NCBI RefSeq assembly: GCF_030384885.1
Contig: NZ_CP128613.1
Length of the DNA stretch: 64,000 bases
DNA from: Escherichia coli
GTDB lineage: Bacteria; Pseudomonadota; Gammaproteobacteria; Enterobacterales; Enterobacteriaceae
Direction: 5' to 3' (one strand)
Of the stretch, positions 9,233 through 62,882 are shown piece by piece; the first letter of the stretch is position 1; each line of letters begins with the position of its first letter. The translations under genes were made by a program, and so were the position numbers. The notes below the pieces were generated by a model. It ran no database searches and was not told the DNA's origin. It was given only the letters and a program-made list of their open reading frames with translations.

Positions 9233-9248
9233 TGTGATCTGCATCACA
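9233..9248. promoter_or_regulatory. CRP site of the flhDC class I promoter (TGTGATCTGCATCACA)
   Basis: Perfect CRP consensus palindrome about 270 bp upstream of the flhD ATG, consistent with the known CRP activation site centred near -72 of the flhD promoter. Confidence 0.75.
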
Positions 9249-10502: not shown

Positions 10503-10570
10503 GCCCCAATCGCGCGTTAACGTCTGACGACTGAACATCCTGTCATGGTCAACAGTGGAAGGATGATGTC

Positions 10571-54398: not shown

Positions 54399-56210
54399 AT
54401 GAATCCACAATTGTTACGCGTAACAAATCGAATCATTGAACGTTCGCGCGAGACTCGCTCTGCTTACCTCGCCCGGATAGAACAAGCGAAAACTTCGACC
54501 GTTCATCGTTCGCAGTTGGCATGTGGTAACCTGGCACACGGTTTCGCTGCCTGCCAGCCAGAAGACAAAGCCTCTTTGAAAAGCATGTTGCGTAACAATA
54601 TCGCCATCATCACTTCCTATAACGACATGCTCTCCGCACACCAGCCTTATGAACACTATCCAGAAATCATTCGTAAAGCCCTGCATGAAGCGAATGCGGT
54701 TGGTCAGGTTGCGGGCGGTGTTCCGGCGATGTGTGATGGTGTCACCCAGGGGCAGGATGGAATGGAATTGTCGCTGTTAAGCCGCGAAGTGATTGCGATG
54801 TCTGCGGCGGTGGGGCTGTCCCATAACATGTTTGATGGTGCGCTGTTCCTCGGTGTGTGCGACAAGATTGTCCCCGGGCTGACGATGGCAGCCCTGTCGT
54901 TTGGGCATTTGCCTGCGGTGTTTGTGCCGTCAGGTCCGATGGCAAGCGGTTTGCCAAATAAAGAAAAAGTGCGGATTCGCCAGCTTTATGCTGAAGGTAA
55001 AGTGGACCGCATGGCGCTGCTGGAGTCAGAAGCTGCGTCTTATCATGCTCCAGGGACATGTACTTTCTACGGTACCGCCAATACGAATCAGATGGTGGTG
55101 GAGTTTATGGGGATGCAGTTGCCGGGCTCTTCTTTTGTTCATCCGGACTCCCCGCTGCGCGATGCTTTGACCGCTGCCGCTGCGCGCCAGGTTACACGCA
55201 TGACCGGCAATGGTAATGAATGGATGCCGATCGGTAAGATGATCGATGAGAAAGTGGTGGTGAACGGTATCGTTGCACTGCTGGCGACCGGTGGTTCCAC
55301 TAACCACACCATGCACCTGGTGGCGATGGCGCGCGCAGCCGGTATTCAGATTAACTGGGATGACTTCTCTGACCTTTCTGATGTTGTACCGCTGATGGCA
55401 CGTCTCTACCCGAACGGTCCGGCCGATATTAACCACTTCCAGGCGGCAGGTGGCGTACCGGTTCTGGTGCGTGAACTGCTCAAAGCAGGCCTGCTGCATG
55501 AAGATGTCAATACGGTGGCAGGCTTTGGTCTGTCTCGTTATACCCTTGAACCATGGCTGAATAATGGTGAACTGGACTGGCGGGAAGGGGCAGAAAAATC
55601 ACTCGACAACAATGTGATCGCTTCCTTCGAACAACCTTTCTCTCATCATGGCGGGACAAAAGTGTTAAGCGGTAACCTGGGCCGAGCGGTTATGAAAACC
55701 TCTGCCGTGCCGGTAGAGAACCAGGTGATTGAAGCGCCTGCGGTTGTTTTTGAAAGCCAGCATGACGTTATGCCGGCCTTTGAAGCGGGTTTGCTGGACC
55801 GCGATTGTGTCGTTGTTGTCCGTCATCAGGGGCCAAAAGCGAACGGAATGCCAGAATTACATAAACTCATGCCGCCACTTGGTGTATTATTGGACCGGTG
55901 TTTCAAAATTGCGTTAGTTACCGATGGACGACTCTCCGGCGCTTCAGGTAAAGTGCCGTCAGCTATCCACGTAACACCAGAAGCCTACGATGGCGGGCTG
56001 CTGGCAAAAGTGCGCGACGGGGACATCATTCGTGTGAATGGACAGACAGGCGAACTGACGCTGCTGGTAGACGAAGCGGAACTGGCTGCTCGCGAACCAC
56101 ACATTCCTGACCTGAGCGCGTCACGCGTGGGAACAGGACGTGAATTATTCAGCGCCTTGCGCGAAAAACTGTCCGGTGCCGAACAGGGCGCAACCTGTAT
56201 CACTTTTTAA
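54399..56210 (+). CDS. edd: Phosphogluconate dehydratase Edd (603 aa)
   Basis: [52 protein letters not shown]... Confidence 0.97.
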
Positions 56211-56246
56211 GACGACAAATTTGTAATCAGGCGAGAGAAAACTCTG

Positions 56247-56888
56247 ATGAAAAACTGGAAAACAAGTGCAGAATCAATCCTCACCACCGGCCCGGTTGTA
56301 CCGGTTATCGTGGTAAAAAAACTGGAACACGCGGTGCCGATGGCAAAAGCGTTGGTTGCTGGTGGGGTGCGCGTTCTGGAAGTGACTCTGCGTACCGAGT
56401 GTGCAGTTGACGCTATCCGTGCTATCGCCAAAGAAGTGCCTGAAGCGATTGTGGGTGCCGGTACGGTGCTGAATCCACAGCAGCTGGCAGAAGTCACCGA
56501 AGCGGGTGCACAGTTCGCAATTAGCCCGGGTCTGACCGAGCCGCTGCTGAAAGCTGCTACCGAAGGGACTATTCCTCTGATTCCGGGGATCAGCACTGTT
56601 TCCGAACTGATGCTGGGTATGGACTACGGTTTGAAAGAGTTCAAATTCTTCCCGGCTGAAGCTAACGGCGGCGTGAAAGCCCTGCAGGCTATCGCGGGTC
56701 CGTTCTCCCAGGTCCGTTTCTGCCCGACTGGTGGTATTTCTCCGGCTAACTACCGTGACTACCTGGCGCTGAAAAGCGTGCTCTGCATCGGTGGTTCCTG
56801 GCTGGTTCCGGCAGATGCGCTGGAAGCGGGCGATTACGACCGCATTACTAAGCTGGCGCGTGAAGCTGTAGAAGGCGCTAAGCTATAA
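56247..56888 (+). CDS. eda: KDPG aldolase Eda (213 aa)
   Basis: [51 protein letters not shown]... Confidence 0.97.
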
Positions 56889-56896
56889 AAGTCAAA

Positions 56897-56924
56897 ATGC
56901 CCGATCGTGAATCGGGCATTTTTG
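56897..56924 (+). terminator. Rho-independent terminator after eda
   Basis: Stem atgcccgat/atcgggcat followed by TTTTG. Confidence 0.8.
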
Positions 56925-56942
56925 TAGCGTTTTTCGCCGGGG

Positions 56943-58121
56943 TTAAGCTTGTACTTTTACCTGTGCTGCGGCGTGCTTTGCGCGCTCAATCGCTTCATCA
57001 ACACTCTCAGCGGTCGCCAGCGCTACACCCAGACGACGGCTGCCATCAATTTCCGGCTTACCAAATAAACGAATCTGCAAACCTGCGCCTACGGCATTCT
57101 GCACATTATCAAACGTGACATTCTGACTGGTCAGTTGTGGCAGGATAACGGCAGAAGCTGCAGGGCCATACTGGCGGATCCCGCCAACCGGAAGTCCGAG
57201 GAAAGCACGCACATGCAGGGCAAATTCCGAGAGATCCTGAGAAATTAACGTCACCATCCCGGTGTCATGCGGGCGAGGGGAGACCTCACTGAAAATCACC
57301 TCATCACCACAGACAAACAGCTCGACACCAAACAGACCATAACCGCCCAGTGCCAGTACTACTTTGCGGGCAATCTCCTGCGCACGTTTCAGAGCCAGCT
57401 GACTCATTTGCTGCGGTTGCCAGGATTCACGATAGTCGCCATCTTCCTGGCGATGACCTACCGGTGCACAGAAATGGACGCCATCCACTGCGCTGACGGT
57501 TAGCAGGGTAATTTCGAAGTCAAACTTAACGACGCCTTCAACAATCACGCGGCCCGCTCCGGCGCGTCCACCTTGCTGAGCGTATTCCCACGCATGTGTA
57601 AGCTGCTCGGCGGAACGAATAAACGTCTGCCCTTTGCCGGAAGAGCTCATTACCGGTTTAACTATGCAGGGATAGCCAATAGCGGCAACTGCTTCGCGGA
57701 AAAGACTTTCACTATCGGCAAAACGATAAGTTGAAGTGGGTAGCTGCAGTTCTTCTGCCGCCAGGCGACGGATACCCTCGCGATTCATCGTTAATTTCGT
57801 TGCGCGAGCGCAGGGGACAACATTCCGTCCTTCCTTTTCAAGCTGAATCAGCATATCGGTGGCAATAGCTTCGATCTCCGGCACGATATAATGTGGTTTT
57901 TCCAGTTCAACCACACGGCGTAATGCATCACCATCAAGCATATTAATGACATGGGAGCGATGCGCGACATGCATGGCTGGTGCGTCGGCATAGCGATCGA
58001 CGGCAATCACCTCTACGCCGAGACGCTGACACTCGATTGCCGCTTCTTTACCCAGTTCACCGGAGCCTAATAACATCACGCGAGTTGCTGCCGGACGCAG
58101 CGCAGTGCCTAATAACGTCAT
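56943..58121 (-). CDS. purT: Formate-dependent GAR transformylase PurT (392 aa)
   Basis: [44 protein letters not shown]...; ATP-grasp. Confidence 0.95.
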
Positions 58122-58157
58122 AACGAATATCCCCTGATTAATTCCGCGCGCAGTATA

Positions 58158-58173
58158 AACGAAAACGTTTGCG
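58158..58173 (-). promoter_or_regulatory. PurR box upstream of purT (acgaaaacgtttgcgc on the plus strand)
   Basis: Reverse complement matches the PurR operator consensus ACGCAAACGTTTTCNT at 15 of 16 positions. Confidence 0.7.
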
Positions 58174-58219
58174 CGTGTCTTTATTGTTGATGTTGATTTC
58201 CCAATCGAGAAGAAATATA

Positions 58220-58235
58220 CTGTATAAAATCACAG
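58220..58235. promoter_or_regulatory. LexA (SOS) box CTGTATAAAATCACAG upstream of yebG
   Basis: Exact CTGT-N8-ACAG consensus; yebG is a known SOS gene. Confidence 0.8.
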
Positions 58236-58254
58236 TTATTATGAGAGGCTGCAA

Positions 58255-58545
58255 ATGGCGGTTGAAGTTAAATACGTAGTCATTCGTGAGGGCGAAGAGA
58301 AAATGTCGTTTACCAGCAAAAAGGAAGCCGATGCTTATGACAAAATGCTTGATACGGCGGATCTGCTTGACACCTGGCTGACAAATTCTCCAGTGCAAAT
58401 GGAAGACGAGCAACGTGAAGCCCTTTCGCTATGGCTGGCAGAACAAAAAGATGTGCTGAGCACCATTCTGAAAACCGGCAAATTACCGTCCCCACAGGTC
58501 GTCGGTGCTGAATCCGAAGAGGAAGATGCCTCACACGCGGCCTGA
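58255..58545 (+). CDS. yebG: SOS-inducible protein YebG (96 aa)
   Basis: MAVEVKYVVIREGEEKMSFTSKKEADAYDKMLDTADLLDTWL... Confidence 0.93.
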   Translation: MAVEVKYVVIREGEEKMSFTSKKEADAYDKMLDTADLLDTWLTNSPVQMEDEQREALSLWLAEQKDVLSTILKTGKLPSPQVVGAESEEEDASHAA

Positions 58546-58563
58546 AGCAACTTGCGCTCCTGA

Positions 58564-58968
<405 letters not shown>

Positions 58969-59294
58969 TGGCCTCTGATAATTCGATTGACCGTCGGCGG
59001 ATGCGGCGCGAGTGCCTGGTCCGCCCTACAAGGCACCTCAATTGTAGGCCTGAGAAGACGCAACAGCGTCGCATCGGGCAATCAGCATCAAACAATGCCA
59101 CTCAAAACGTCAAATTACGTTCACCTAAAATACCCTTATCACCTGATATACAGTGAACACCTTACCTGGCGCGAATTTCTTTGAATAACGGCCTGCCGAC
59201 CCGCTTATTTGCGCATCTTTTGTCTCGATATACATTTTCTGACATCCTCATCCGCTATGCTACAGGCACTAAAAATGGTTATTGAGGAGCAAAT

Positions 59295-59954
59295 ATGGCT
59301 AACTGGTTAAATCAACTGCAATCCCTGCTTGGGCAAAGCAGTTCTTCTACCTCCTCGTCTGCGGATCAGGGATTGGGCAAACTTTTAGTGCCTGGCGCAT
59401 TAGGCGGACTGGCTGGGCTGCTGGTCGCAAATAAATCAGCACGTAAACTTCTTACGAAATATGGCACCAACGCGTTGCTGCTTGGCGGCGGAGCGGTAGC
59501 GGGTACGGTGCTGTGGAATAAATACAAAGATAAAATTCGCGCGGCGCATCAGGACGAACCGCAGTTTGGCGCGCAAAGTACGCCGCTGGATGAGCGTACG
59601 GCACGTTTGATCCTTGCGCTGGTCTTTGCCGCTAAAAGTGATGGTCATATTGATGCCAGAGAACGTGCGGTAATCGACCAGCAATTGCGTGAAGCCGGCG
59701 TGGAAGAGCAGGGGCGTTTACTCATTGAGCAGGCAATCGAACAACCGCTGGATCCACAACGCCTGGCTACCGGGGTCCGCAATGAAGAAGAGGCGCTGGA
59801 AATCTATTTCCTGAGCTGCGCGGCTATTGATATTGACCATTTTATGGAACGCAGTTACCTGAATGCCCTGGGTGACGCGCTGAAAATCCCCCAGGATGTT
59901 CGTGAAGGTATTGAACGCGATCTCGAACAGCAAAAACGTACTTTGGCGGAATAA
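59295..59954 (+). CDS. yebE: Inner membrane protein YebE (DUF533; 219 aa)
   Basis: [44 protein letters not shown]... Confidence 0.9.
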
Positions 59955-60135
59955 TTCCGCTCTCTGGATAGCCTGAAGTTGACTATTTCGGGCTATCCAG
60001 AACCGCACAGCCATTTGAACAGGCTGATCTTCTCTGTCTGCATAACATTCGAAATCCGCGCCATTACCTGTCATCATCTAAGCAATGACTCCCCTGTTTC
60101 GCTTGCATCCCCGGTGAGTTTTGCCACCCTTATAA

Positions 60136-62882
<2,747 letters not shown>

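Follow-up and report, generated by a model that had tools for sequence, protein, structure and literature searches.

Introduction

The closest described system is the purT-yebG region of Escherichia coli K-12 (Lomba 1997; Cho 2011, PMC3159470; Belliveau 2018, PMC6003448), where textbook-style simple repression at two adjacent promoters has been dissected at base-pair resolution. PurR ChIP-chip identified a peak in this region with the motif ACGAAAACGTTTGCGT at 1,928,852-1,928,867, placed purT among the genes that PurR represses directly with adenine, and located PurR motifs at -10 and -35 elements (Cho 2011, PMC3159470). Sort-Seq of the purT-yebG spacer in both orientations (Belliveau 2018, PMC6003448) resolved, on the purT side, the -35 and -10 elements of RNA polymerase with a repressor site between them that is seen when adenine is present, yields PurR enrichment in affinity purification with hypoxanthine and is lost in a purR deletion strain and, on the yebG side, LexA and RNA polymerase sites together with induction by mitomycin C. 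The text of the same paper, which gives no coordinates, moves the RNA polymerase site of yebG downstream by 9 bp relative to a 1997 computational prediction. Among studies of the SOS response, a UV tiling-array study listed the yebG SOS box TATACTGTATAAAATCACAGTTATT, identical to the sequence described here, among UV-induced genes and reported a yebG-yebF co-transcript with yebF wholly under LexA control, and a 2024 RNA-seq study gave the yebG LexA 20-mer a heterology index of 6.3, mid-range among SOS genes, with 4.4-fold AZT induction and 9.7-fold lexA dependence.

The other operators of the pur regulon (purF, purMN, purC, purEK) are, like that of purT, 16-bp imperfect palindromes with a central CG that lie over the -35/-10 region, and gammaproteobacterial SOS boxes at the -10 element or start (recA, sulA, umuDC, dinD) have the same CTGT-N8-ACAG arrangement with an AT-rich spacer as the yebG box. 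Among divergent gene pairs, uvrA-ssb is an SOS pair with a short spacer in which a single LexA box serves both directions. The purT-yebG pair differs in that each gene has its own operator and the two repressors are different; LexA control of purT is not seen in the published Sort-Seq and 2024 RNA-seq results.

Given the K-12 literature (PurR ChIP-chip, Sort-Seq and several SOS studies), the purT-yebG region as seen here is already known and nothing about it is novel: PurR and LexA binding and regulation were demonstrated by others in K-12, and it is the presence, significance, conservation and separability of the two sites that are addressed here. What is added is a footprint of 59 species in which both modules are conserved across Enterobacteriaceae and Erwiniaceae, the natural experiment provided by Yersinia and Serratia in which the LexA box belongs to yebG alone, and comparative support for TTGATT-17-TATACT as the conserved yebG promoter.

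Gene context and spacer

The window, meaning the whole stretch of 64,000 nucleotides analysed, belongs to an E. coli chromosome. Strain 2013C-4282 matches it with 100% identity over 57800-58600, and of 5426 complete E. coli genomes 5425 contain the region. On the minus strand, purT (56943-58121, start codon at complement 58119-58121) encodes the formate-dependent GAR transformylase of 392 aa, as identified by its open reading frame and the NCBIfam equivalog NF006766/TIGR01142 (E about 1e-195), and on the plus strand yebG (58255-58545) encodes the DNA damage-inducible protein of 96 aa, as identified by its open reading frame and NCBIfam NF007475 (E=5e-62). For both genes the open reading frame listing, the NCBIfam models and the RefSeq annotation of the 100%-identical strain are concordant. 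The neighbourhood comprises edd and eda upstream and yebF (58600-58968), yebE and ptrB downstream.

The two genes are divergent, and the spacer at 58122-58254 measures exactly 133 bp from start codon to start codon, in line with the earlier statement that both boxes fall within about 130 bp between divergent genes. The gene identities, the divergent layout, both operators and the spacing had been read correctly in the initial annotation, in agreement with the published experimental sites in K-12. The K-12 region is orthologous, with the same genes, 133-bp length, LexA 20-mer and PurR offset, and differs from the window by five substitutions in 181 bp, one of them at the last PurR base (C here, T in K-12) and the others in the unconstrained 58187-58209. 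A sigma-70 consensus scan of the spacer gives one promoter, with its -35 and -10 hexamers, per direction. Shine-Dalgarno-like candidates can be read off the sequence in front of each gene, namely AGGGGA for purT (58130-58135, minus strand, 8 nt before the ATG) and GAGAGG for yebG (58243-58248, plus strand, 6 nt before the ATG). A scan of 56000-60500 with Rfam gave no match within the purT-yebG spacer. Two sub-threshold Rfam matches to naRNA4 (REP-element-like), at 25-28 bits where the gathering score is 59.5, lie on the minus strand at 58950-59098, between yebF and yebE.

PurR operator and purT promoter

The PurR operator, or pur box, ACGAAAACGTTTGCGC, occupies 58159-58174. Given that the CG dyad falls at 58166/58167, this is the centred 16-mer, and the box placed by the initial annotation at 58158-58173 is indeed present but with coordinates 1 bp too far left. 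Compared with the palindrome ACGCAAACGTTTGCGT, which has the central CG, the site has 2 mismatches and is the sole match in 64 kb at up to 3 mismatches; at up to 2 mismatches this 1 match is set against 0.08 expected. A position weight matrix (PWM) trained on the 15 other ChIP-chip sites of Cho 2011, with purT left out, places 58159-58174 at the top of the window with 21.4 bits, against 13.9 for the next independent site and a maximum of 17.4 in 50 shuffles, and this score is within the range of 14.8-22.1 of the other PurR sites. The offset from the purT ATG is 37 nt for both 58159-58174 and the K-12 ChIP-chip motif.

The predicted purT promoter on the minus strand consists of the -35 hexamer AAGACA (58176-58181) and the -10 hexamer TATACT (58152-58157), separated by an 18-bp spacer. 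Both hexamers were found by the consensus scan and match those of Shimada 2014, where genomic SELEX with the RpoD holoenzyme gave the same two hexamer pairs for the purT-yebG spacer as are described here for purT and yebG. The -35 hexamer is kept in 45 of 60 loci, and at the -10 position TATACT is present in 51 and TATAAT in 7 of the 60 divergent loci. The PurR box therefore sits in the core promoter of the purine gene, between the predicted -35 and -10 elements, as in Sort-Seq; it lies entirely in the spacer between the hexamers and otherwise shows no difference of substance from the other pur operators.

The last base of the operator, C in the window and T in K-12, is responsible for the 2 mismatches to the PurR palindrome instead of 1. 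The C allele is common to other E. coli strains and 10 other species, and published binding is that of the K-12 T allele; judged from the sequence, the C variant at 58174 presumably still binds PurR.

LexA box and yebG promoter

The LexA (SOS) box TACTGTATAAAATCACAGTT occupies 58218-58237, with its CTGT-N8-ACAG core, CTGTATAAAATCACAG, at 58220-58235 around an AT-rich spacer, and is identified by PWM score, by the identical published sequence and by conservation. The bare core pattern occurs 2 times in 64 kb against 0.56 expected. A PWM was trained on 17 E. coli SOS boxes from Table 4 of PMC3009722, that of yebG being left out. It gives the 20-mer 20.4 bits, within the range of 13.0-28.4 of the 17 training boxes, and shuffled sequences average 12.7 bits and reach 18.9 at most. 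The box had been called perfect at 58220-58235, and this holds for the coordinates and for the CTGT/ACAG core, which is exact, but not for the whole 20-mer, given its heterology index of 6.3 and the 5 positions at which direct comparison shows it to differ from the idealised TACTGTATATATATACAGTA; a consensus search at up to 3 mismatches gave no match. Compared with other SOS boxes, that of yebG is a mid-strength operator whose LexA-dependent induction is documented. The distance of 46 bp previously given between the two boxes is right for the coordinates then used and becomes 45 bp with the centred PurR 16-mer; centre to centre, the boxes are 61 bp apart.

For yebG, the predicted -35 hexamer is TTGATT (58193-58198, plus strand), supported by the consensus scan and Shimada 2014; its TTGA is 70-80% conserved across genera. 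The best-supported candidate for the -10 hexamer is TATACT (58216-58221, plus strand), which follows after a 17-bp spacer and overlaps the LexA 20-mer by 4 bp. A TTGnnn hexamer stands 17-18 bp upstream of TATACT in most yebG loci, Yersinia and Serratia included, TATACT itself is retained at 50 of the 60 divergent and 18 of the 20 tandem loci, 68 of 80 in total, and T58216 and A58217 are ~90% conserved though they lie outside the LexA consensus. In this arrangement the predicted yebG start (about 58228) falls within the LexA box, which also extends into the -10 hexamer, and the 20-mer ends 17 nt before the yebG ATG, the distance reported for Salmonella yebG as well.

The published 9-bp shift of the yebG polymerase site would fit a move either from TTGCTG (58184-58189 in K-12) to TTGATT (58193-58198) or from TATACT (58216-58221) to TAAAAT (58225-58230). 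Comparative data favour TTGATT-17-TATACT as the conserved yebG promoter, the exact hexamers being candidates, since its -10 hexamer is kept in 68 of the 80 loci and the final T of the downstream hexamer is seldom retained. An extended -10 element, with a TG before TAAAAT (58225-58230), was considered for yebG and rejected: the TG at 58221-58222 is in the wrong register and T58230 is kept in ~10% of species.

Conservation across species

A scan for YebG with one genome per species returned 80 loci. In 59 of these purT is the divergent neighbour of yebG, for example in Escherichia, Citrobacter, Salmonella, Klebsiella, Raoultella, Kosakonia, Phytobacter, Cedecea, Erwinia and Pantoea, and the spacer between the two genes is 128-141 bp long with one exception at 261 bp. 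All 59 divergent loci have both operators: a PurR box with no more than 3 mismatches, which lies 35-43 bp from the ATG of purT and reads ACGAAAACGTTTGCGT in 40 of them, and a CTG-N10-CAG LexA box 16-21 bp from the yebG ATG. The conservation profile is near-invariant over the purT -10 hexamer and PurR box (58150-58174) and over TATACTGTAT...ACAG, moderate over both -35 hexamers and poor at 58182-58192 and 58200-58213. The first of these poor segments, 58182-58192, is the linker between the two -35 elements and, by the profile and its gap columns, holds all insertions of other species.

Measured from centre to centre, the boxes lie 59-63 bp apart in 54 of the 59 species; four others have 69-73 bp and Klebsiella spallanzanii has 188 bp, the longer distances being due to an extra 8-12 bp in four loci (L011, L031, L032 and L033) and 125 bp in the K. 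spallanzanii locus (L054), in every case between the -35 elements. Given that insertions of 8-12 bp and 125 bp are tolerated in the linker, the spacing of the boxes is unconstrained. The 125-bp insertion of K. spallanzanii, upstream of position 1501 of its locus, has internal palindromic arms CCCCGGTCACGTAC...GTACGCTCCCGGGG and leaves both operators intact; it looks like a small intergenic repeat element.

In the remaining 21 of the 80 loci, which belong to Yersinia, Serratia, Chimaeribacter and Edaphovirga, yebG has a neighbour other than purT on its upstream side, and in both such loci examined it is dbpA, in tandem on the same strand. The LexA box is kept in 20 of these 21 loci, 18 of which also have TATACT in the same register, and a search of the 21 loci for a PurR box found none, the best match having at least 6 mismatches. 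Since these loci keep the LexA box without a PurR box, each operator appears to move with its own gene, as an independent module specific to that gene. The sole yebG locus of the 80 that is without CTG-N10-CAG is that of Yersinia nurmii (L060, 1460-1480), where the left half-site is degenerate (GCGGATATTAATACAG), which suggests that the SOS box of yebG has been weakened or lost in this species.

Variation within E. coli

The window was aligned with K-12 and four other strains (O157:H7, SMN152SH1, FP4 and ST69). The PurR box is invariant among these save for the last base, 58174, where the window shares a C with FP4 and ST69, and the other three strains, K-12, O157:H7 and SMN152SH1, carry T. 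The core tetranucleotides of the LexA box are likewise invariant save in FP4, in which A58232T changes ACAG to TCAG, and inner substitutions are present in O157:H7 (A58227G) and SMN152SH1 (A58229G); the strain variants score 14.9-19.7 bits with the LexA PWM compared to 20.4 for the window. Substitutions among the E. coli strains are mostly at 58187-58212, from the yebG -35 region to the LexA box.

In one of the 5426 genomes, that of E. coli MS 21-1, an ISL3-family element carrying an ISEc53 transposase and a ClbS/DfsB-family gene lies inside the spacer of the yebG LexA box (L007 2633-4519, corresponding to 58224-58231 of the window) with the 8-bp target duplication ATAAAATC. The insertion parts CTGT from ACAG, leaving two remnants that both score below -5 bits on the LexA PWM, and also cuts yebG off from its -35 and -10 hexamers. 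As read from this arrangement, yebG regulation should be altered in MS 21-1.

Discussion

The combined evidence argues strongly for two back-to-back sigma-70 promoters, each with its own repressor site in the core promoter, which very probably act independently. Given that their -35 elements are only 11 bp apart, the promoters form a back-to-back divergent pair. In the proposed mechanism, purT would be transcribed from AAGACA-18-TATACT on the minus strand with the PurR operator filling the spacer between the hexamers, and PurR loaded with hypoxanthine or guanine would exclude RNA polymerase from purT when purines are plentiful, because the operator fills the space between the hexamers. On the opposite strand, yebG, with yebF, would be transcribed from TTGATT-17-TATACT, and a LexA dimer would block initiation until RecA-stimulated cleavage of LexA after DNA damage, since the LexA box reaches from within the -10 hexamer across the predicted start at about 58228. 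It is most likely that each repressor blocks RNA polymerase at its own promoter, with steric occlusion as the presumed means and with the start sites as predicted here. We infer the independence of the two promoters from the comparative data and from the directional features seen in Sort-Seq. The closeness of the modules is best explained as a reflection of the adjacency of the genes in Enterobacteriaceae and Erwiniaceae and not of a combined switch.

H-NS, sigma-S or cAMP-CRP might act on the spacer as unrecognised inputs with a weight equal to that of PurR and LexA. Expression of yebG is said to have been found by Oh and Kim in 1999 to be stationary-phase-, cAMP- and H-NS-dependent. Furthermore, H-NS is marked in the purT-yebG spacer by Shimada 2014, and genomic SELEX with the RpoS holoenzyme gave a 63-fold peak at this spacer in addition to the highest peak of the genome (390-fold), which lies in the 5'-proximal part of purT. 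Given these reported H-NS and RpoS-holoenzyme inputs, and that of SspA discussed below, a description in terms of two repressors only is a simplification. Nevertheless, inputs of equal weight are unlikely for three reasons: first, Sort-Seq found no other features under the conditions used (Belliveau 2018, PMC6003448); second, the spacer has no extra conserved block beyond the promoter elements, operators and ribosome-binding regions; and third, a CRP-like site in the spacer is not above chance, the best match having 3 mismatches, of which there are 216 in the window against 234 expected. A CRP site in the spacer was accordingly rejected as the basis of the reported cAMP dependence of yebG.

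Two side observations concern the same factors. The 390-fold RpoS peak, at K-12 coordinate 1,928,972 of U00096.2, corresponds to about 58054 in the window, ~67 bp into purT. The window also holds two perfect CRP consensus palindromes elsewhere, one at 427-442 (TGTGATTTGCATCACA), upstream of a small open reading frame adjoining a ferritin-like gene, and one at 9233-9248 (TGTGATCTGCATCACA), ~270 bp upstream of the flhD open reading frame, which we take to be probably the known flhDC CRP site.

The proximity of the two operators raises the question of an integrated switch, in which DNA damage and purine supply would cross-regulate both genes, either directly, with the neighbouring promoter altered by LexA sitting ~75-90 bp upstream of where purT starts or by PurR sitting ~55-70 bp upstream of where yebG starts, or through supercoiling, with divergent transcription coupling the promoters. 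Only 11 bp separate the -35 hexamers and ~85 bp the predicted starts, and with promoters so near the upstream contacts of the two polymerases could overlap; the box spacing is, in addition, held at 59-63 bp centre to centre in 54 of the 59 species. However, such a switch is very improbable. Sort-Seq, described by its authors in terms of "directional regulatory features", found only RNA polymerase and PurR on purT and only RNA polymerase and LexA on yebG (Belliveau 2018, PMC6003448). In the 2024 RNA-seq study purT is absent from the LexA-dependent genes and is listed solely as SspA-dependent, with other pur operons, and the main text of the PurR regulon paper (Cho 2011, PMC3159470) makes no mention of yebG. 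The comparative data agree, in that the LexA box remains with yebG where purT is absent and insertions between the boxes are tolerated, both of 8-12 bp, which change the helical phase, and of 125 bp. The near-constant spacing is instead accounted for by the small number of indels in a short spacer that is made up of two constrained promoters.

Neither a constraint on spacing or phase nor a cross-effect, either of which would mark integrated dual-input control, was found in the comparison of species or in the published Sort-Seq. Purine and DNA-damage signals had been said in the initial annotation to act within the same short region, and this is right in the spatial sense but does not extend to integrated control, given that comparative and published data point to two independent modules. 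Coupling of purT and yebG through supercoiling from SOS-induced yebG transcription, or through LexA or PurR occupying the upstream contact zone of the neighbouring polymerase, has a slimmer chance still, and no support for it and no sign of cross-talk was found in the sequence, comparative or published data examined; if it were true, DNA damage would modestly raise purT expression and with it the purine supply for repair.

That one or both motifs are chance matches without a regulatory role can be dismissed with near certainty: the bare CTGT-N8-ACAG does arise by chance in the window, between flhC and motA at 10540-10555, but that match scores only 5.9 bits whereas the PWM scores of both operators are far above those of shuffles, both sites are conserved across genera whereas the linker and other surrounding spacer segments are poorly so, and the binding and regulation published for K-12 refute it.

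The flhC-motA match itself (CTGTCATGGTCAACAG), which lies 15 bp before the motA GTG, was examined as a LexA site and rejected as probably due to chance, given its GC-rich spacer and low score. A second LexA-like site was also encountered in Citrobacter, where 13 loci (from L013-L015, L017-L025, L027 and L028) have a second CTG-N10-CAG, reading CTGTCTTTATTACCAG or ...GCCAG, that follows immediately on the PurR box and lies over the -35 hexamer of purT, about 82 bp upstream of yebG. Possible LexA control of purT through this site was considered and the site rejected as a chance occurrence, its scores of 5-8 bits being below those of shuffles; on sequence grounds, LexA is unlikely to bind there. 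The other top-scoring LexA PWM site of the window, at 42958-42977 (CGCTGGATATCTATCCAGCA) with 21.1 bits, is the published ruvA SOS box, which is itself part of the PWM training set.
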